Shown here piece by piece: positions 6,610 to 54,157 of a stretch of DNA of 64,000 nucleotides (its first letter is position 1; every line of letters begins with the position of its first letter). Position numbers and translations under genes: made by a program. Under the pieces are notes generated by a model, which was not told where the DNA came from, did not search any database, and saw only the letters and a list, made by a program, of their open reading frames with translations. Source of the DNA: an uncultured Anaerolineales bacterium (GTDB lineage: Bacteria > Chloroflexota > Anaerolineae > CG2-30-64-16); NCBI GenBank assembly GCA_964513075.1, contig CAZELR010000007.1, forward strand, positions 22,208 through 86,207, given 5' to 3'.

Positions 6610-6645
6610 AAGAAACCAGGTTTCCCGGGGAAGCCTGGTTTCTGT
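6610..6645. terminator. Bidirectional intrinsic-terminator hairpin between convergent genes
   Basis: AGAAACCAGGTTTCCC-GGG-GAAGCCTGGTTTCT: ~16-bp stem with one G.U-type mismatch, located between the 6608 (+) stop and the 6667 (-) stop. Confidence 0.55.
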
Positions 6646-6666: not shown

Positions 6667-7770
6667 TTATTGTGGCTGAGGGCTTGGTGTGGTATTCACT
6701 GTGGGCGTCACACCTGACCCCGACACGATGATGGTCGGCATCGTCCCTGCGGGCGTGAAGATAAGCTTATCGGTGGCCTTGAGTGCGCTGGCGTTTGCCA
6801 GGGCCGTCTGTAACGCCAGATAGGCAGGGCTGTCGGTATAGAGCTGAGCTTTGGCGAGCTCAAGGGCCAGGTCGGCTTTGGCTTTTTCGGCCGCAGCCTT
6901 GGCCTGCGCCTGGCTGATCGCGAAATCGCGCTCGGCTGTCAGCAGTTCGTTGGCCTTGGTTGCCTCGATGACCTCTTTTTGCGCCAGCACCTTCTCCCGT
7001 TCAAGCTGCGCCAGGATCGTCTGCTGGCGCGCCTCTTCTTGCACGCGGCTTTGGGCCACGCGCACCTCACCTTCCTGGCGGGCCTGCTCGGCAGCAGCCT
7101 CGGCATCGGCCTTCAGCTTGTCCTGCGCGGCTTTCTCGGTGTTCAGACGGCTCTGGGTGATGGCGTCCAATAGCGCCTGAGCCTCGTTCGACAGGATTAC
7201 GTTGGGCACGGTCACATTGGCGATCTGCAGGCCGTAGTTCTGGGCAAGGTTGCTCAACTCCTCGTCGATGCACTCGCGCAGCACATCGCGCGCGGTGCCG
7301 ATGACGTTGTCGTTGAAGGTCCGTTCGCCGATGCACACCTTCGCAGCCTGCCGGGCCAGGTTCTCGACGCGGTCCTGCAGGATCTGTTCGCGCAGGTATA
7401 ACTCGCTGTACTGGGCCCAGTTGGCCTTCAGCATATCGGCTTGCGAGAGGTTGGGGCGGAAGATATCGCCCGACACCACGATCCCCAACCGCTGCTTGTC
7501 TTTGGTGATGATCTCGTCATCCTCGACCGTGAACGACACCGCGGAACTAGGCACCTTTTTCAGCTCCACGTACAGGCCGACGTCGGTGTAGAGGCCGGGC
7601 CCTACGACGTTGGCGATGCGACCACCGCGAAACTGAACGCCGACTTCCTGTTGCTCGACCCGGGCCATGATGTAGAACAGGTTGCTGCTGGTCAGCACGA
7701 TCACGACGATCAGCGCGAAAACGGCAAGCAGGATGCCGCGCAACAGATTTATGTTGAAGGCTCGTTTCAT
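6667..7770 (-). CDS. SPFH/band-7 (prohibitin/HflC-K-like) membrane protein with a long Ala/Gln-rich coiled-coil tail
   Basis: Start moved to the ATG at 7770 (MKRAFNINLLRGILLAVFALIVVIV TM anchor) with an AGGAG SD 11 nt upstream; SPFH core follows; the ORF-track start at 7863 adds 31 unlikely residues. Confidence 0.8.
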   Translation of the reverse strand: MKRAFNINLLRGILLAVFALIVVIVLTSSNLFYIMARVEQQEVGVQFRGGRIANVVGPGLYTDVGLYVELKKVPSSAVSFTVEDDEIITKDKQRLGIVVSGDIFRPNLSQADMLKANWAQYSELYLREQILQDRVENLARQAAKVCIGERTFNDNVIGTARDVLRECIDEELSNLAQNYGLQIANVTVPNVILSNEAQALLDAITQSRLNTEKAAQDKLKADAEAAAEQARQEGEVRVAQSRVQEEARQQTILAQLEREKVLAQKEVIEATKANELLTAERDFAISQAQAKAAAEKAKADLALELAKAQLYTDSPAYLALQTALANASALKATDKLIFTPAGTMPTIIVSGSGVTPTVNTTPSPQPQ

Positions 7771-7937
7771 GGGTTCAATGCTCCTGGCCTCTTGGGCCTC
7801 GAACTCGAAATCGAAGTTGATACGAATACATTCTACACGGCGTGCAACTTGGAATGCTGACACGAGGGTGACAAACGACGCCTAAATAAAGAACCGGGGT
7901 TCTGACTTCAGAAACCCGGTTCTTGTAGACGTCTGGT

Positions 7938-9333: not shown

Positions 9334-9369
9334 CCTTTATCATGGACCCGATCGGGTCCATGATAAAGG
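9334..9369. promoter_or_regulatory. 36-bp perfect palindrome (possible operator and/or terminator)
   Basis: CCTTTATCATGGACCC-GATC-GGGTCCATGATAAAGG equals its own reverse complement; sits 14 nt downstream of the 9383 stop and ~220 nt upstream of the pfk start. Confidence 0.4.
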
Positions 9370-9673: not shown

Positions 9674-9752
9674 AAATGCTTCGTCCTTTCTGATGGTGGT
9701 ATCCGAGTATTCACCGGAGGTCACAGACCTCCGGTGAATACTTGTTTTGGTG

Positions 9753-15812: not shown

Positions 15813-16244
15813 TTACTCCAGATCAGGCTTGGGCACGACCACCGTCACGTTTGGGAGCCGTGCAAAGTGCGATCGGTCGAAAGTGTAAGCTGTCGTCAAC
15901 CCTTGCACCGCCAACCAGGCTCCATTATATGCATCGATAAAGTCCACGTTCTTTTCAACAAATCCATTGATGCCTTGCAGCACCAAGTCGCCATTCGCGA
16001 TCTCCAGGCCGGGTGTGTTGAGGATAGCGAGCACTTTTTCCTGGATAGAGGCTTTGGACAGCTTATAGAACGATTCCAGCGTCCAGACGATCTCGGCGAT
16101 GACCAGGCTGTTGGTCACCAGGGTCAGTTCCCGGTTTGCGGCGCGTTTCAGCAGCGCGTCCACGGCATCGGCTTGCACGGGCACATCGTTCGTCAGATAG
16201 CGCAAGAATAGGTTCGTATCGGCGAAAACGCGTTCAGGCCGCAC
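15813..16244 (-). CDS. vapC: PIN-domain toxin (VapC family)
   Basis: 143 aa; MRPERVFADTNLFLRYL... PIN acidic residues (D9, E, D); overlaps the upstream antitoxin gene by 11 nt. Confidence 0.8.
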   Translation of the reverse strand: MRPERVFADTNLFLRYLTNDVPVQADAVDALLKRAANRELTLVTNSLVIAEIVWTLESFYKLSKASIQEKVLAILNTPGLEIANGDLVLQGINGFVEKNVDFIDAYNGAWLAVQGLTTAYTFDRSHFARLPNVTVVVPKPDLE

Positions 16245-16485
16245 CGTTCGCCACCTTTCGGGCGTGCGCCTCGATTACCTGTCGCCGGATGACGTCGAAA
16301 TCCTGTTCTCCGCTCACCGGTACGCTGCCGCGCAAATCGGTCAGCGTCTGCTGGAGCGGCTGCAGGATGATCTCGTCGCCGCGCCGCGTGAAGATGACGC
16401 GATCGCCTTCTTGCAGCTTCAAGAATTGACGGACCGGGCGCGGCAGCGTGATTTGACCACGACGTCCTACGGTGCTAGCGATCAT
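16234..16485 (-). CDS. vapB: AbrB/MazE/SpoVT-type antitoxin (VapB family)
   Basis: 83 aa; N-terminal swapped-hairpin motif (RRGQITLPRPVRQFLKLQEGDRV); classic toxin-antitoxin gene overlap with vapC. Confidence 0.75.
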   Translation of the reverse strand: MIASTVGRRGQITLPRPVRQFLKLQEGDRVIFTRRGDEIILQPLQQTLTDLRGSVPVSGEQDFDVIRRQVIEAHARKVANGAA

Positions 16486-16576: not shown

Positions 16577-16625
16577 GGGTTGGATGCCGGACGCTGGATC
16601 CAACTTCCAGCATCCAACCCCCAAA
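16577..16625 (-). terminator. Hairpin downstream of the permease gene (candidate terminator)
   Basis: GGTTGGATGC...GCATCCAACC 10-11-bp stem immediately 3' of the 16629 stop, followed by TTTGAGA on the - strand (weak U-tract). Confidence 0.35.
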
Positions 16626-16628
16626 CGC

Positions 16629-18011
16629 CTAGAACTCGATATTGCTTCGTTCCTTCACGCCGAACTTCGACGGCGGCAGCAGCACGAATACAAGGTTCAA
16701 CAGAATGCCGACGATAGCCGAGAACACGATCGCCGGAATGCCATTCGGGAACAGTACGGGGATCTGGAATGGGTAGAGACCGTCTTTCAAACCCATCGCA
16801 CCCCCGATGCCCAGCACCAGGATTGTTGCGCCGATGGCCAGGTTCTTCGGATCGAACAGGTTCACGCGCTCGCTCTGAATGAGTGCGACGCCTTGCTTGC
16901 CGATGACGCCGAACAGGTAGATCGACAGGCCCCCGATCACCGCCAGCGGGATGGTGTTGATCAAAGCGGCGAGCTTGCCGATGAAGCCTAGCAGGATGGC
17001 CATTGCGCCTGCTGCAAAGAGCACCGGCACCGAATAGTTGCGGGTGATGGCCATGAGTGAGTTGTTTTCGCCGTAGTTGGTCCCCGGGCAGCCGCCCAAC
17101 AGACCGACCACAATGTCATCTGCACCATCGGCCACCAGGTTCAGGCCGATCAGGTTTTTGATGGACGTGGGCTTGCGGCCCAGGTCCTTAGCGAGCTGGT
17201 CGATGTAGAGGCTCATCTGGTACAGGTGGGCCGTAGATTCAGGGATCGTTGCGATGGCAATCAGTGCAACGCTGACCACCACCGACCAGGCCCGCGGATC
17301 GGTGAAGGCCGGGAACGTGATGTTGGGCACCCGGAACCAGTCAGCCTGCAGGACAGACGCGAATTTGACCAATCCGAACGGGATCGCGACCAGATAACCG
17401 ACGATGGCGCCGAGCAGAATGGGGATCATGCCGAGCAGACCTCTGCCCTGCAGATAGACCGAGAAGATGACGGTGGCGATCAGTGTAATAAAGGCCACCG
17501 GCCAGTTCGACGAGGCTTCGCCCAGGGCAGTGCCTGCAAGTGCGATACCGATGACGATAGCGACACTGCCTGTTACGATGGGCGGTAGGATACGATCGAG
17601 GGCCGCCTTGCCGACCCGCTGAATCAACAGGCCAAACAGGATTTCGACGACTGCGGTGCCGAGAATGCCGACCTGGGCTAATCTTACGCCATCAGGGCAG
17701 TATACGGTGGTGGGATCGCCGAAGCAGGCCGGTGCATACAGGGACATTACCGTAATGATGACGCTGATATAGCTGAAGCTGGATCCGTAGTACATCGGGA
17801 TGCGTCGGTTGGTCACCAGCAGGGCGATGATCGTGCCCAGGCCGCTGGCCAGCAGCGTCACGCCGACGTCGAACTTGGTGAGGACGGCAACCAGGACCGT
17901 TGCCGGGAACATAGTCAGCATCTGCTGAAAGCCGAGGCTCAACATAGCGCCGATGGGTGGGGTGTCGTCCGGCATGTAACCGAGGACAGCTTTCTTGGTT
18001 TCGACGGCCAT
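16629..18011 (-). CDS. Nucleobase:cation symporter-2 (NCS2) family permease (xanthine/uracil permease type)
   Basis: 460 aa, ~13 TM segments, NCS2 signature regions; GGAAGGAG SD upstream of the ATG at 18011. Confidence 0.85.
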   Translation of the reverse strand: MAVETKKAVLGYMPDDTPPIGAMLSLGFQQMLTMFPATVLVAVLTKFDVGVTLLASGLGTIIALLVTNRRIPMYYGSSFSYISVIITVMSLYAPACFGDPTTVYCPDGVRLAQVGILGTAVVEILFGLLIQRVGKAALDRILPPIVTGSVAIVIGIALAGTALGEASSNWPVAFITLIATVIFSVYLQGRGLLGMIPILLGAIVGYLVAIPFGLVKFASVLQADWFRVPNITFPAFTDPRAWSVVVSVALIAIATIPESTAHLYQMSLYIDQLAKDLGRKPTSIKNLIGLNLVADGADDIVVGLLGGCPGTNYGENNSLMAITRNYSVPVLFAAGAMAILLGFIGKLAALINTIPLAVIGGLSIYLFGVIGKQGVALIQSERVNLFDPKNLAIGATILVLGIGGAMGLKDGLYPFQIPVLFPNGIPAIVFSAIVGILLNLVFVLLPPSKFGVKERSNIEF

Positions 18012-18295
18012 CTTGGATCACTCCTTCCACTGAATGAATGGGTGGGATAAAGATGCAACGAACGTATGAATGATCGGGGAGTGCCGGGCTCCCAATCTAT
18101 CAGGCCCCGAGCTGTCGGGTCCCGGTGGGTCTCTGGCGGTTACCTCCCTTTGCGCGTCAAGACGGCCAAAACGATTTACTATCTTGACGAGCAATCATAG
18201 CATAGGTTACGGGCATTTGCTCTACGCTTGCATGGCGCTAAGCCAACGCTAGCGTTGTGACCCGACTCCGAGCCACATAGCGCAATCCCCATCTT

Positions 18296-18326
18296 GACCT
18301 TTGAGGTCTCGCAGACCTCAAAGGTC
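18296..18326. repeat. Palindromic hairpin element, copy 1 (GACCTTTGAGGTCT-CGC-AGACCTCAAAGGTC)
   Basis: 14-bp perfect stem with a 3-nt loop, 3' of the DUF1116 gene; a second copy at 19614-19644 differs by one compensatory base pair. Confidence 0.5.
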
Positions 18327-18336
18327 TTCGCCCAGT

Positions 18337-19602
18337 TCAGTATCCGTACGCTTCTGCAAATGCCACCAACGCATCCTCAAACACACTCATGGGGGCCGTC
18401 ACGATGCCCGCCCCCACCTGGCCGATGCCCGGGTCCTTGTGGGCGACGCCGGTGTTGACGCGGGGCGAGATGCCCTTTTCCACCACCTTGCGGATGTCGA
18501 TCCCCGTCGGGGTGCCGCGAAAGTCCAGGGGCGGCATGGTGAAGAACTTGTGCTCGGCGTACGTGATCTCGTACATATCCAGCGTGGTGTTGATCGCGTC
18601 GCGCGCTGAGCCGCCGACGAACGATACGATGGCCGGCGCGGATGCCATCGCGAACCCGCCGATGCCCGCCGTCTCGGTGATGGTGCTGTCGCCGATATCG
18701 GGGTTGGCGTCAGCCTCGGTGAATCCTGAGAAGTACAACGCCTTCACCTTGCCGGCCGGGGCCGTGAACCAGCGGTCGCCCAGGCCGCTGACGCGGATGC
18801 CGAAGTCCGTGCCGTTGCGGGCCATGGTGGTGACGATGGTGCTGCCCGGAATCCCGTGACCAGCCAGCGTCATGAGCTTGCACGCGGCCATGCCCGGGTT
18901 CAACACGGCCAATGGGTTGTCGCCGAGCAGCCGCAGGATATCGGAGGCGATGTCGGCGGAGGGGGCCACCTTGACCACGGACGCGTCTAAGCTCTTGAGG
19001 AAGAGCAGCGTGCCGGCCTGCATCCGGTTGTGGCCGTCATCGCCCATGTGGAGCGACTGCGCCAACAGCGAGCGCAGGTCGATGCCGCCGCTGGTGCCGC
19101 CGGCCAGGCGGACCGCTGCATCCAGCACGGGCGCCATCACCTCGTTCAGCCAGCGCAGGCGGTCCAGCACGTCCTCGCTATATGCGCCCATGCGCAGCAC
19201 CTTGCCGCGGCCTTCGTTGATGCTCGAGAAGGCACGCGGACCGCCCGGTCCGCCGGCCTGGTCCTCGACGATGTAGACCATCATCGAGGGCGAGATCAGG
19301 CCTGCCATCGGGCCGGCAGCCGAGTAATGGTGGCAGGGCGCGAAGTCGATTGCCCCCGCTGTGATCAGCGCCTCCGCGTCGTCCCAGCCCCTGGCCTTGC
19401 CTTCGAAGATCAGTGCGCCCACGGCCGCGCCTTTCATCGGGCCGGCCATGCGCTCCCAGGTGATCGGTGGGCCCGCGTGCAGCAGCAGATTGTCGCGCAT
19501 CCCAGGAATCACATCCCGCGCTCGTCCCAGCCCGATCAGCACCGGCCTGGATGCCATCATACGTTCAACGGTTGTGCGATTGGCTTGCTCGATGTCTATC
19601 AT
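18337..19602 (-). CDS. DUF1116-family protein (YlbE/AllG-like; partner of FdrA)
   Basis: Start at ATG 19602 (MIDIEQANR; AAGGAG SD); the ORF-track extension to 19653 reads through the hairpin element; conserved DUF1116 length (~420 aa) and FdrA adjacency. Confidence 0.75.
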   Translation of the reverse strand: MIDIEQANRTTVERMMASRPVLIGLGRARDVIPGMRDNLLLHAGPPITWERMAGPMKGAAVGALIFEGKARGWDDAEALITAGAIDFAPCHHYSAAGPMAGLISPSMMVYIVEDQAGGPGGPRAFSSINEGRGKVLRMGAYSEDVLDRLRWLNEVMAPVLDAAVRLAGGTSGGIDLRSLLAQSLHMGDDGHNRMQAGTLLFLKSLDASVVKVAPSADIASDILRLLGDNPLAVLNPGMAACKLMTLAGHGIPGSTIVTTMARNGTDFGIRVSGLGDRWFTAPAGKVKALYFSGFTEADANPDIGDSTITETAGIGGFAMASAPAIVSFVGGSARDAINTTLDMYEITYAEHKFFTMPPLDFRGTPTGIDIRKVVEKGISPRVNTGVAHKDPGIGQVGAGIVTAPMSVFEDALVAFAEAYGY

Positions 19603-19613
19603 GGCCTCTCCTT

Positions 19614-19644
19614 CAGACCTTCGAGGTCTCGCAGACCTCGAAGG
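19614..19644. repeat. Palindromic hairpin element, copy 2 (GACCTTCGAGGTCT-CGC-AGACCTCGAAGGTC), intercistronic between fdrA and the DUF1116 gene
   Basis: Same 31-nt element as 18296-18326 with a T/A to C/G compensatory change that preserves the stem. Confidence 0.5.
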
Positions 19645-19652
19645 TCTCCACA

Positions 19653-21446
19653 TCAGGATGACAGGCGACTGGCCCCTTTCATTCGTGCGAGGATCGCGGC
19701 CAGCTTCTCGTTTCCCCCGGCGGGCGGCCGCCAGTCCACCTGGATGGCCTGGCTGCCCTGGGCGATCAGGTTCTCGGCGAACGACTCCAGGCCGACGTTG
19801 ATGGCGGAGAGCGGCTTTTGCAGGGTCGCGAGGTCCACCGGTGCGGCAGATCGGGACAAAGCAGATTGGGATTCTGGATTGAGGCTGCGCACCAACTGGC
19901 CGGCGTAGCGGATCGTTGCCTCATTATTCGTATCAACCCACGCGCCCGCGTTTCTGAGCTGCTCGATCTGGCTGGCCAAGCCTTGCGGATCTTCGTCTGT
20001 GCCCGTGACGACAGCGACGATTTCCAGGTAACGACCGCTCGCCTGGGCTGCGGCTCTGGCCCTGGCGATGGCAGGGGCCAGCTCGCTGGCGGGGTCGGGG
20101 TGCGATCCGTAGCCGAGAACCACGTCCAGCATGATTACGGCCGTCTCCGGATCCGCGGCTTCTTGATCCAGCCGGCGGATGCGCAGCTCATTGTTCATCA
20201 TCGGATGCAGTCGTCCAACGGTGAACTCGTCCTCGCCCAGGTCGATGATGGTATGCTCCTGGCTCGTCAACGCGTTGGGAATCCGGTTTGCCTTATTGAG
20301 AGGCGCGTTGGCCCACACGCGGGGCAGGTAGTCCTGGAGCAGGTATTGCGCTTCGTAGGCCAGCGTGCCGCCTGAAAACAGACCGCGCAGATAACGTTGT
20401 CCAGGCGCAAACCTCCCCCCCTCCTCGATTCCCCCCCCTCTCCGGACGGCAGAACTGTCGCCGTCGGGAGAGGGGGGCAGGGGGGTGAGGTCAACCGCCA
20501 AGCGCGCCGCATCGTCCAGCCCCGTTGCGAAGTAGAGATTGTCGATTTGCCGGGCCGACGCGGCACGACCGATGAAATTCACGACCACCGGCTTCTGCGC
20601 CTGGCGGGCCAGCGCCAACATCTCCTCGGCGACCCTGGGCGCGGGCGGCTTGGACACCAGGACGATGACCCGTGTCTCGGGGTCGCGTGCCAGCACATCG
20701 ATGGCCTGCCGGAAAGTGACCGCGCCGACCTGCTCCGTGAGATCGCGACCGCCCGTGCCGATGCCGTGGGTGAGGCCTCCGCCCAACTGGTGGATGCGCG
20801 CAGTAACGTGCTGCAAGCCTGTGCCGGCCGCGGCCACGACGCCGATCGGTCCGCGGCGCACCCCGTTGGCGAAGCCGAGGCCGATCCCATTGATGATGGC
20901 GGTCCCGCAGTCCGGACCCATCACCAGCAGACCGCGCGCCGACGACATCTCCTTGAGCGCTATCTCGTCTTCGATCGACACGTTGTCGCTGAACAGGAAG
21001 ACGTGCTTGCCCAGCTCCAGCGCCGCGCGCGCGACCCCGGCAGCATAGCGGCCTGCAACCGAGACCAGCACCCAAGAGGCGTCAGGAAGCAGCGCGGCCG
21101 CGGTCTCCAGGCTTTGCGGCCGGTAGTCTTGCTGAAGGGTCGAAGCGCGCCGGGTGAGCAGCCCATCGACCTGCGCCAGCGCGGCGCGGGCTGACGCCTT
21201 GTCGAGTGCCTTGACGGTGATGATCAGGTCGTCGGACCTGATATCGCGCACTTCCGGCGGCAGCAGGCCGCTCTGGGCCAGCAGCTCAAGATTGGCAGGC
21301 GTGCCCATCATCACCCCGGCGTCGACGACATTGGGGAGTGCAGCGAGGGAAGCGCGCAATTGCATCAGGACGATAGAGTCGTAGTAGGCGCTGCGCCTTA
21401 GCTCGGCTTGAGTAACTGTCATGGGCATTTCATGCTTGGGCATCAT
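19653..21446 (-). CDS. fdrA: FdrA-family protein (succinyl-CoA-synthetase-alpha-like CoA-binding/ligase fold; AllF-like)
   Basis: 597 aa; CoA-binding Rossmann plus ligase-CoA domains (GIGTGGRDL...; VSKPPAP...); GGAG SD 9 nt upstream of the ATG pair. Confidence 0.8.
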   Translation of the reverse strand: MMPKHEMPMTVTQAELRRSAYYDSIVLMQLRASLAALPNVVDAGVMMGTPANLELLAQSGLLPPEVRDIRSDDLIITVKALDKASARAALAQVDGLLTRRASTLQQDYRPQSLETAAALLPDASWVLVSVAGRYAAGVARAALELGKHVFLFSDNVSIEDEIALKEMSSARGLLVMGPDCGTAIINGIGLGFANGVRRGPIGVVAAAGTGLQHVTARIHQLGGGLTHGIGTGGRDLTEQVGAVTFRQAIDVLARDPETRVIVLVSKPPAPRVAEEMLALARQAQKPVVVNFIGRAASARQIDNLYFATGLDDAARLAVDLTPLPPSPDGDSSAVRRGGGIEEGGRFAPGQRYLRGLFSGGTLAYEAQYLLQDYLPRVWANAPLNKANRIPNALTSQEHTIIDLGEDEFTVGRLHPMMNNELRIRRLDQEAADPETAVIMLDVVLGYGSHPDPASELAPAIARARAAAQASGRYLEIVAVVTGTDEDPQGLASQIEQLRNAGAWVDTNNEATIRYAGQLVRSLNPESQSALSRSAAPVDLATLQKPLSAINVGLESFAENLIAQGSQAIQVDWRPPAGGNEKLAAILARMKGASRLSS

Positions 21447-21470: not shown

Positions 21471-22661
21471 TCAGATCACTCCCTGGGCCTTGAGCTGTTG
21501 GACTTGTTCCTGGGTATAGCCCAGGTCTGCCAGGATCTCTCCGGTGTGCTGCCCCAATGTTGGCGACGGCAGGCGGTAGCTGACGGGCGTGGCGCTCAGA
21601 TGCACCGGGTTGCCCACCGAGCGCACCAGGCCGGCGGTGGGGTGCAACTGCTCCACAATCATCTCGCGGGCGATGATCTGGGGATCATTGAGTGCTTCGT
21701 CCACTTCGTTGATCGGCCCGCAGGGGATATCGGCCGCGCGCAATCTCTCCAGCCAGAACGCCGCATCCTGGGTCGCAAAGACCTGCTCCAGCAGTGGAAT
21801 CAGCGCGCTGCGATTGCGGATGCGGTCCGGGTTGGTGGCGAAGCGCGGATCAGCACCCACAGTCTCGACGATATTGAGCGCCTGGCAGAACCGCGTCCAG
21901 AGCCGCTCCGTGCCTACCGCGACGGTCAGGTGCTTATCGCGCGCGCGAAACGGTTGGTAAGGCACAATGGTTGCGTGGGCGTTTCCGATCTTCTGCGGAC
22001 GTTCGCCGGTGGCGAAGTACGCGCCGGCCATGTGCGTCATCCAGGCGAGCTGGCTATCGAGCAGCGCCATGTCCAATACCTGGCCCTGTCCCGTCCGGTC
22101 GCGGGCCACGAGCGCCGACAGGATGCCGATCATGCAATACAGGCTGCAGGTGGCATCGGCGAGTGGGATCGGAAAGCGGATCGGCCCCATGCCCGGCTCG
22201 CCGGTCTGCGCCATGAGCCCGGCGCGTGCCTGCGCCACTACATCATAGCCGCCCTGGCCCGCCTCCGGCCCGGTCATGCCGAAGCCGCTGATGAGGCAAC
22301 AGATCAAGCGCGGGTTGATCCCACGCAGGGTGTCCGGGTCCGCGCGCAGCCTGCGCAACGACTCCAGGCTGGGCTGGTTGACCATGAAGACGTCGGCCTC
22401 GGCGATCAGCCGATGCAGGATGGCTTGCCCCTCCGGCTCTTTCAGATTGAGCGTGATCCCGCGCTTGTTGCGGTTGACGCTCATGAAGTAGGCGCTTTCC
22501 TTTTTGACATAAGGAGGCGCCCAGCCGCGGGTCATGTCGCCCGCGCCGGGACGCTCGATCTTGATGACATCGGCCCCTAAATCGCCCAGCATCATGGCGC
22601 AAAACGGCCCAGCCAGCGCCTCAGTCATTTCGATGACACGAATTCCGTCGAGTGGCTCCAT
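21471..22661 (-). CDS. Family III CoA-transferase (CaiB/BaiF/formyl-CoA transferase type)
   Basis: 396 aa; MEPLDGIRVIEMTEALAGPFCAMMLGDLGADVIKIERPGAGDMTRGW is the canonical family-III N-terminus. Confidence 0.85.
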   Translation of the reverse strand: MEPLDGIRVIEMTEALAGPFCAMMLGDLGADVIKIERPGAGDMTRGWAPPYVKKESAYFMSVNRNKRGITLNLKEPEGQAILHRLIAEADVFMVNQPSLESLRRLRADPDTLRGINPRLICCLISGFGMTGPEAGQGGYDVVAQARAGLMAQTGEPGMGPIRFPIPLADATCSLYCMIGILSALVARDRTGQGQVLDMALLDSQLAWMTHMAGAYFATGERPQKIGNAHATIVPYQPFRARDKHLTVAVGTERLWTRFCQALNIVETVGADPRFATNPDRIRNRSALIPLLEQVFATQDAAFWLERLRAADIPCGPINEVDEALNDPQIIAREMIVEQLHPTAGLVRSVGNPVHLSATPVSYRLPSPTLGQHTGEILADLGYTQEQVQQLKAQGVI

Positions 22662-51805: not shown

Positions 51806-51945
51806 AAACCTCAGGGCAGTATAACCTCAGAAGGGGCGGGAGGTCAAAGGGAGAACTTTCCAAACACAGCGCATGCCGGTTATAATAGCAGCACCTGCCA
51901 TGTCCCCAAGACCTGACAGGTCTACACACAGACAGGAGCCCATCC

Positions 51946-52308
51946 ATGACCGAACCCGTAGCTAAGGCCATCCACTACACCGATGTTCCGGCCCAAGTCT
52001 TCGGCGACCAGGCGCCCGGCGTCACCATTCGTTGGGTGATCGACGAGCAGCACGATGGCGCGCCCCACTACGCGCTGCGTGTCATCGAGGTCGCGGCCGG
52101 CGGCAACACCCCCAGGCACGCGCACCCCTACGAGCACGAGAATTTCGTCATCGAGGGCCAGGGCCGGGTGCTGATCGCTGACACCTGGCATGCTGTCGGC
52201 CCCGGGAGCGTGATCTTCGTGCCGGCTAACATCCTTCACACCTACGAAAATACCGGCGAGACGTCGTTCAAGTTCCTGTGTGGCATCCCCACCTCGCGCC
52301 ATATGTAA
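51946..52308 (+). CDS. Cupin-domain protein
   Basis: 120 aa; HAHPYEHENFVIEGQG two-His cupin motif. Confidence 0.7.
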   Translation: MTEPVAKAIHYTDVPAQVFGDQAPGVTIRWVIDEQHDGAPHYALRVIEVAAGGNTPRHAHPYEHENFVIEGQGRVLIADTWHAVGPGSVIFVPANILHTYENTGETSFKFLCGIPTSRHM

Positions 52309-54091: not shown

Positions 54092-54100
54092 TGAGCTTGC

Positions 54101-54157
54101 TTCACAAACCAGGTTTCGCGTCCTTCGGTGTTGCAGAAACCTGGTTTGTGAAGTGAT
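54101..54157. terminator. Long perfect hairpin (18-bp stem) between convergent genes, bidirectional terminator
   Basis: CTTCACAAACCAGGTTTC...GAAACCTGGTTTGTGAAG; shares the AAACCAGGTTTC core with the 6610 hairpin. Confidence 0.55.

Follow-up and report, generated by a model that had tools for sequence, protein, structure and literature searches.

Repetitive extragenic palindromes (REPs) and their REP-associated tyrosine transposases (RAYTs) have been described in E. coli, Pseudomonas and Stenotrophomonas, where the repeat is a palindrome of 20-40 bp that folds in single-stranded DNA (ssDNA) and is found mainly just downstream of genes (PMC6006769, PMC3733652, PMC8266576, PMC5581495). A REP family that co-evolves with the RAYT gene it brackets is known as a REPtron (PMC6006769, PMC3733652). 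Here we analyze two nearly identical hairpins that flank the AllG/DUF1116 (PF06545) gene, allG, in a stretch of 64,000 nucleotides (the window) from an uncultured Anaerolineales bacterium of the phylum Chloroflexota (contig CAZELR010000007.1). In our judgment the two hairpins very probably belong to a REP family that has a RAYT-like Y1/HUH tyrosine transposase as its cognate enzyme, and this transposase probably spreads the palindrome through the genomes of Chloroflexota and Bacteroidota. The hairpins are selfish or domesticated repeat DNA and not a regulatory device of the allantoin-related operon in which they lie.

Copy A (GACCTTTGAGGTCT-CGC-AGACCTCAAAGGTC, 18296-18326) has a 14-bp stem, lies 10 nt past the allG stop codon and carries T/T at the family's outermost A/T pair. 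Copy B (AGACCTTCGAGGTCT-CGC-AGACCTCGAAGGTCT, 19615-19647) is a perfect palindrome of 33 nt with a 15-bp stem and a 3-nt loop; a closing A/T extends the stem of its core (GACCTTCGAGGTCT-CGC-AGACCTCGAAGGTC, 19616-19646), which the first-pass annotation had set 2 nt too low while giving copy A exactly. On the coding (minus) strand, 5 nt separate the fdrA stop codon from the start of copy B, whose end lies directly upstream of the allG ribosome-binding site AAGGAG and 12 nt short of the ATG at 19602; the placement of copy B between fdrA and allG, and that of copy A 3' of allG, are as previously described. The copies differ solely by a T-to-C change in the 5' arm and an A-to-G change in the 3' arm, both stems being perfect, and the pattern was found in none of 100 dinucleotide-preserving shuffles of the window, which bears out the initial observation of two hairpins with a single compensatory base-pair change. 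Folded as RNA in a 61-nt context the two hairpins reach -30 and -24 kcal/mol (z = -4.5 and -4.2), and as ssDNA -17 and -15 kcal/mol (z = -6.5 and -8.3). With 33 bp and perfect stems of 14-15 bp, the element has the size and shape of a REP, a short (~20-40 bp) hairpin-forming palindrome. Miniature inverted-repeat transposable elements measure 70-300 bp and have an internal sequence enclosed by terminal inverted repeats, along with target-site duplications; an element of 33 bp with a 3-nt centre and no consistent duplication is not one of them.

Comparison with relatives points to recent insertion of both hairpins. Both sites were empty in all five orthologous loci, L121 and L122 (94% AllG identity), L204 (90%, with 21 kb of synteny), and L123 and L205 (87%), in which the fdrA-allG spacer measures 9-17 nt. 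Copy B occupies a clean 39-nt indel relative to L121 and L122 (19614-19652, minus strand; TGTGG, the REP and a G on the coding strand), the junction reading CCTGA/TGTGG-REP-G/AAGGAGAGGCCATG in the window and CCTGA/AAGGAAAGGCTATG in L121. At copy A, L121 lacks about 40 nt that directly follow the allG stop codon in the window (ACTGGGCGA plus copy A; 18296-18336, minus strand), the boundaries being approximate because the flanks have diverged. As judged from these alignments, both insertions postdate the split from relatives with 87-94% AllG identity; elements that inserted so recently beside allG did not evolve as a regulatory signal of this operon. A target-site duplication was considered and is not supported, as only copy B has CTGA at both edges. 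In L121 the empty sites both read CTGA/AAGGA, which with two sites may be coincidence (a stop codon plus a Shine-Dalgarno-like sequence) or a target preference.

The palindrome is a dispersed family. We scanned one genome per species (185,579 species, 596 Gb) with the pattern GACCTNNNAGGTCNNNNNGACCTNNNAGGTC (GACCTN3AGGTCN5GACCTN3AGGTC), whose 20 specified bases give about one match expected by chance, and found at least 120 loci. Among the matches listed, most are from Chloroflexota (Anaerolineae, Chloroflexia, Caldilineales, Thermoflexia), followed by Bacteroidota (Flavobacteriaceae, Saprospiraceae, Cyclobacteriaceae, Rhodothermales), with others from Moduliflexota (UASB14), Acidobacteriota, Gemmatimonadota, Latescibacterota, Calditrichota, Methylococcales and Thiotrichaceae. 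The same 33-mer is common to Chloroflexota, Bacteroidota, Moduliflexota, Acidobacteriota and some Gammaproteobacteria. Several genomes hold more than one copy, 3-7 among the matches listed (at least seven in UASB14, six in a Saprospiraceae metagenome-assembled genome and four in PPR_0270). A search of 2.9 million viral contigs gave no match.

The 33-nt consensus consists of A-GACCT-NNN-AGGTC-T, a 3-nt loop and A-GACCT-N'N'N'-AGGTC-T. Each 15-nt arm, AGACCT-NNN-AGGTCT, is itself an inverted repeat, and the arm centres are 18 bp apart. The constancy of the AGACCT and AGGTCT hexamers among the matches is not evidence in itself, because the search pattern fixed them; of the positions not specified by the pattern, the closing A/T and T/A show ~90% conservation across phyla and the loop varies freely. 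The flanks of the copies are unrelated, and the palindrome runs 1-9 nt beyond the closing A/T in 32 of 123 copies. In a survey of 244 flanks, position -1 alone was conserved (A, 95%). A single arm as the basic unit of the family was rejected: singles are rare and mostly decayed doubles, with about four true singles in 0.83 Mb.

Most copies occupy short junctions between same-strand genes, often 3-30 nt past a stop codon, and most of the family's loci (at least 120) lie outside open reading frames (ORFs) or at their edges, a dispersed and mainly extragenic distribution such as REPs have. Among the matches listed, about 15 copies lie deep within long ORFs, in frame and using three frames, with the translations DLTGLxDLSGL (nine copies), RPxRSxRPxRS (four or five) and QTFEVSETSKV (one). 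Relative to the structure 3ZYY, a RACo-type ASKHA protein (L089) has an insert of 13 residues to which the copy contributes and which none of 39 close homologues carries. Such in-frame inserts appear to be tolerated in loops or linkers of proteins.

Pairing within the stem is kept with unusual strictness. In an alignment of 131 copies from loci L001-L120, the central triplets took 24 different values and were exact complements of each other in 123 copies; of 393 variable cells, 380 were Watson-Crick pairs (97%, with all four combinations represented), three were G·T and ten were mismatches. The covariation score was 0.249 against 0.051 in shuffles, none of 500 reaching the observed value, and it fell to 0.065 or less once partners were slid by 1-3 columns. 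The compensatory change seen in the window is therefore an instance of a family-wide constraint on the hairpin, as had been proposed. Since wobble pairs are nearly absent, the strict pairing points to pairing at the DNA level and not to a selected RNA structure. The further proposal, that selection acts on structure rather than on primary sequence, is not supported: the closing positions are conserved across phyla although the pattern left them free, and the hexamer beside the RAYT genes described below, found without any DNA pattern, varies only between RAYT lineages. The palindrome reads alike on both strands, and "CAC...GTG" and "GTG...CAC" are therefore different elements; use of the central triplet as a strand marker was discarded as invalid, since orientation is carried by the loop alone, and loop orientation showed no obvious bias relative to gene direction when inspected by eye. 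The 5'-arm triplets of this alignment are strongly skewed (CAC 32 and GTG 4, GAC 24 and GTC 1, CCG 23 and CGG 6), a pattern that might stem from a founder effect or from a preference in recognition.

The link to a transposase came from clustering all ORFs of the 120 listed loci with no prior expectation. The recurring families were ABC-transporter ATPases and one protein of ~190 amino acids with the sequence MPRR..YYHxYNRGNNR..AYCLMPTHYHLL..LFQG.F..YIHLNP. This protein matches Pfam Y1_Tnp (PF01797, IS200-like) with E = 7e-7, its best NCBIfam match is NF047646 ("REP-associated tyrosine transposase"), and its sole match in the PDB is 4ER8, TnpA-REP of E. coli. Its motifs are (T/N)H[YF]H, FQ or FK, and Y[IV]H[LAT]NP; judged by these, it has the features of a RAYT, a Y1/HUH enzyme encoded by a single gene with an HuH motif and a predicted catalytic Tyr in YxxxNP. 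The start codon of this gene lies 9-30 nt from a palindrome in L003, L013, L052 and L076 (L051 is partial), and usually a second copy or variant follows just past the stop codon, so that in these five loci the same repeat brackets the RAYT gene, as in a REPtron. It is this association of the family with a RAYT-type transposase that supports the REP-like reading, which the first-pass annotation had listed as an alternative.

The association was also recovered in the reverse direction. A metagenome scan by alignment of the transposase proteins returned at least 541 relatives, of which 80 loci were kept. A hairpin of at least 12 bp lay within ~160 nt upstream of 48 of 74 homologues and at or past the 3' end of 58 of 76, with 39 having hairpins at both ends. 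The two hairpins of one gene normally have the same arm sequence, and this sequence shifts with divergence of the RAYT (for example AGACCTCCGAGGTCT, AGACTTCCGAAGTCT, AGAAACCGGGTTTCT, ACAAACCCGTTTTCT and AGAAGCTAACCTTCT), while the design is shared: a 15-nt inverted-repeat arm, a centre of 1-4 nt and a perfect stem. Between the HuH and Tyr motifs the RAYT genes hold in-frame codons derived from the REP, translated as QTSEVFKTSEVS, KTSEAS or KTSETS (L003 3881-4486, L013 72-698, L076 1223-1789 and L051 7628-7999). The gene in L013 has TAG at the catalytic Tyr codon and is therefore likely a pseudogene or a sequencing error.

These features are consistent with the described REP/RAYT systems in several respects: a 20-40-bp palindrome that folds in ssDNA and sits mainly just downstream of genes (PMC6006769, PMC3733652, PMC8266576, PMC5581495), the same repeat at both sides of a single Y1/HUH transposase gene, a repeat sequence that co-varies with the transposase lineage, and occasional in-frame copies inside genes. 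Unlike known REPs, the family lacks the 5' GT[AG]G guide tetranucleotide, and its perfect 15-bp stem has a two-fold symmetry of its own and contains the hexamer four times. In contrast to REPIN doublets the copies are mostly single, and whereas described REPs are largely species- or genus-specific, the same 33-mer here spans several phyla. Like the family members that encode protein segments, Rickettsia palindromic elements occur in frame in conserved proteins; unlike them, the two copies in the window are extragenic. Rickettsia palindromic elements measure 100-150 bp and, to our knowledge, have no known transposase.

Assignment to a published RAYT subclass was attempted and dropped, as the motifs fit none of 2.1, 2.4 and 2.6 cleanly. 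Subclass 2.4 (group 4; Cyanobacteria, Bacteroidetes, Caldilineae) is the one in which REP-derived in-gene codons have been reported, as a unique feature (PMC6006769); the proteins described here resemble it in length (~190 amino acids), in patchy cross-phylum spread with a Caldilineae/Bacteroidetes distribution, and in carrying such codons between HuH and Tyr (QTSEVFKTSEVS or KTSETS). The motifs of 2.4 are NH[IFV]H, WQ and YIxNNP and its REPs are of GTAG or "double-foot" type; with (T/N)H[YF]H, FQ/FK and Y[IV]H[LAT]NP and no GTAG, the present family does not match it, the in-gene REP being the sole feature in common when membership was assessed. Subclass 2.6 (group 5; Bacteroidetes, with "atypical secondary structures") is similar in its hosts, in its proteins of ~179 amino acids and in flanking structures that lack GT[AG]G, and its example from Belliella (CAGTCTTCAGACTG...CAGTCTGAAGACTG) contains similarly nested palindromes. 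Its structures are, however, described as weaker and hand-identified, its motifs are NH[LIV]H and YIH[QN]NP, and the tables of the paper covering it contain no 33-mer of the AGACCT type. The FQ and YIHLNP motifs recur in subclass 2.1, which is, however, reported to be without REPs. Full-text searches on the explicit arms found no paper that gives these arm sequences, and we therefore class the palindrome as a further RAYT-associated REP family, not found described in the literature, that is untagged (without canonical GTAG), perfectly palindromic and unusually wide in its distribution across phyla. That it represents an undescribed REP/RAYT lineage spreading horizontally and operating without a GTAG guide is a tentative proposal. 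The occurrence of AGACCT four times in a two-fold-symmetric stem suggests a different mode of recognition, such as a dimeric RAYT reading the symmetric stem.

Several observations weigh against the reading of the hairpins as a REP/RAYT family. The 64-kb window has no RAYT gene, and the cognate enzyme is known from other genomes alone; the window itself contributes two full copies and one single arm. The match of the protein to NF047646 scores 64 bits and, unlike known RAYTs, falls below the cutoff of 80. No tetranucleotide was enriched in the 244 flanks, and the family lacks the canonical 5' GT[AG]G (or CGTC) foot; a conserved GTAG/GTGG guide was accordingly rejected, copy B happening to carry GTGG 5' of its stem and copy A lacking it. 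The extra flanking bases differ between copies A and B, and neither a target-site rule nor an exact element boundary could be fixed from the loci compared. The strict pairing, finally, could also be produced by template-switching intra-hairpin correction instead of selection at transposition.

Among other explanations, the one that survives best, although we regard it as unlikely, is that the fdrA-allG transcript uses the hairpins as dedicated cis-acting RNA elements (a processing site, 3'-end stabiliser or attenuator) kept by selection on RNA structure, as the first-pass annotation had suggested. One at each end of allG, both copies share an orientation on the transcribed strand (loop GCG), the RNA hairpins are very stable, and many copies of the family lie just past stop codons in same-strand junctions; REPs of E. 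coli stabilise upstream mRNA. An operon-specific regulatory RNA would hold a conserved orthologous position; the hairpins do not, being missing from L121, L122, L123, L204 and L205, and the identical element occurs beside unrelated genes in several phyla and inside coding regions. G·U pairs account for 3 of 393 variable cells, the palindrome has no strand bias of its own, and neither stem is followed by a U-tract. An Rfam search of 17500-20500 with E up to 10 gave no match at either hairpin, the sole matches in that region being chance miRNA-like ones on a GC-rich palindrome inside fdrA. A promoter scan found nothing.

Far less credible is a pair of tandem operators for a dimeric regulator that binds double-stranded AGACCT-N3-AGGTCT. 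Each arm is indeed a 15-bp inverted repeat whose partner lies 18 bp away centre to centre, and an isolated arm (AGACCTGACAGGTCT, 51909-51923) is found in the 5' region of a cupin gene (51946-52308), 22 nt upstream of the gene and ~20 nt downstream of a TATAAT-like box (51882-51887). A dimer bound to duplex DNA would not couple the central triplets, yet 123 of 131 pairs are exact complements; copies lie inside ORFs and past stop codons and not at promoters, and the transposase is the only protein linked to the sites. By our estimate ~0.06 single-arm sites are expected by chance in 64 kb, and the lone arm could be a decayed copy or a protein-binding site. Rho-independent terminators, or generic stem-loops alike by convergence or chance, can be set aside as the least plausible reading of all: an intrinsic terminator is a GC-rich stem with a U-tract, and although these perfect, GC-containing stems are sited 3' of genes, a scan of 17900-19800 gave no terminator-like site and no T-run after either stem on either strand (the sequences past them are GAAGGAG and AAGAUGG), copy B is followed 12 nt later by the start codon of a same-operon gene, and convergence is ruled out by the conserved closing positions and by at least 120 copies where about one is expected.

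By analogy with TnpA-REP of E. coli and the IS200/IS605 elements (PMC8266576, PMC6006769), the RAYT-associated palindrome would fold into a 15-bp hairpin in single-stranded stretches of DNA such as the lagging-strand template. The transposase would recognise the fold together with the conserved hexamers, then cut and rejoin the strand, and new copies would be seeded mostly just past stop codons and in short intergenic gaps; the family may favour places where a ribosome-binding site follows a stop codon. If only well-paired hairpins serve as substrates, strict Watson-Crick pairing would be kept while the central triplet drifts. As a by-product, transcribed hairpins of -24 to -30 kcal/mol may block 3'-exonucleases or weaken the translational coupling of fdrA and allG, and any such effect on the mRNA would be secondary. 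In E. coli, REPs stabilise upstream mRNA, and REPs within operons can lower translational coupling.

The insertion of copy B also accounts for the two possible starts of allG. The order of genes on the minus strand is a family III CoA-transferase (21474-22661), the FdrA/AllF-like gene fdrA with a CoA-ligase fold (19653-21446, stop TGA at 19655-19653), allG (18337-19602, stop at 18339-18337) and a xanthine/uracil-type permease (16629-18011). An upstream ATG at 19653-19651 on the minus strand would give an ORF of 438 amino acids; this ATG is made of the A of the fdrA stop codon and the TG of the inserted segment, which argues that the start at 19602 is right and the longer ORF an artefact. AllG homologues have 413-425 amino acids, a recorded protein of 421 amino acids is 100% identical to the AllG of the window, and in relatives allG begins at the same ATGATAGACATCGA. 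Together with the Shine-Dalgarno sequence AAGGAG at 19613-19608, these comparisons indicate that allG starts at 19602, the shorter start favored in the first-pass annotation, and that the 438-residue ORF is an artefact of the insertion.

In L121 and L204 the spacer between allG and the permease gene (18012-18290) is well conserved, as is an inverted repeat within it (CGTCAAGA...TCTTGACG); the spacer has no Rfam match and may serve as a leader or operator of the permease gene. It contains in the window an additional palindromic piece of ~30 nt (GGCCCCGAGCTGTCGGGTCC, ~18098-18130) that is not present in L121. Within fdrA, a G/C-rich palindrome at 20412-20491 (CCCCCCTCTCC...GGAGAGGGGGG) lies in frame in the variable FdrA linker and is translated as PLPPSPDGDSSAVRRGGG; variants are found in L121 and L204, and it is absent in L123. 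A similar product, PPSxPPSGGDERGG, appears as an insert in the RACo homologues P0122-P0131, in the same RACo loop where L089 carries the AGACCT repeat.

Other palindromes were observed in the window. A second palindromic family with arms AGAAACCnGGTTTCT has the same nested design and is present at 6611-6643, 7889-7924 and 54100-54153. An SPFH/Band-7 gene (6667-7863), which the syntenic relative L204 lacks, lies between two of its copies, and the same arm type flanks the RAYT homologues in L133, L137, L140, L152, L162, L175, L182 and L183. A toxin-antitoxin pair of VapC(PIN)/MazE-like type (15813-16244 and 16234-16485) and a palindrome with 22-nt arms (16577-16620) together occupy ~890 bp, the corresponding position in L204 measuring only ~75 bp. 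Two perfect palindromes occupy short intergenic gaps at 9334-9369 and 9706-9742; one is a 36-bp palindrome (CCTTTATCATGGACCCGATCGGGTCCATGATAAAGG), and the other a hairpin with a 17-bp stem and the tip GGAGGTC-ACA-GACCTCC, which is similar to the repeat's inner half.

The observation holds up, but what it reveals is of an ordinary kind. For the window, it removes a candidate regulatory element, sets the start of allG, on the comparisons above, at 19602 and explains the 438-residue ORF as an artefact of insertion. On the evidence of this window alone, repeats of this kind lead to mis-called starts and spurious ORFs, and in other genomes the palindrome sometimes adds 11-13 residues to conserved enzymes. 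More broadly, a REP/RAYT family is documented outside the well-studied Proteobacteria, in a poorly charted lineage in Chloroflexota and Bacteroidota, and it lacks the GTAG guide, the basis of current detection methods and of the structural model of recognition. Such repeats could influence the stability of operon mRNA in Chloroflexota.

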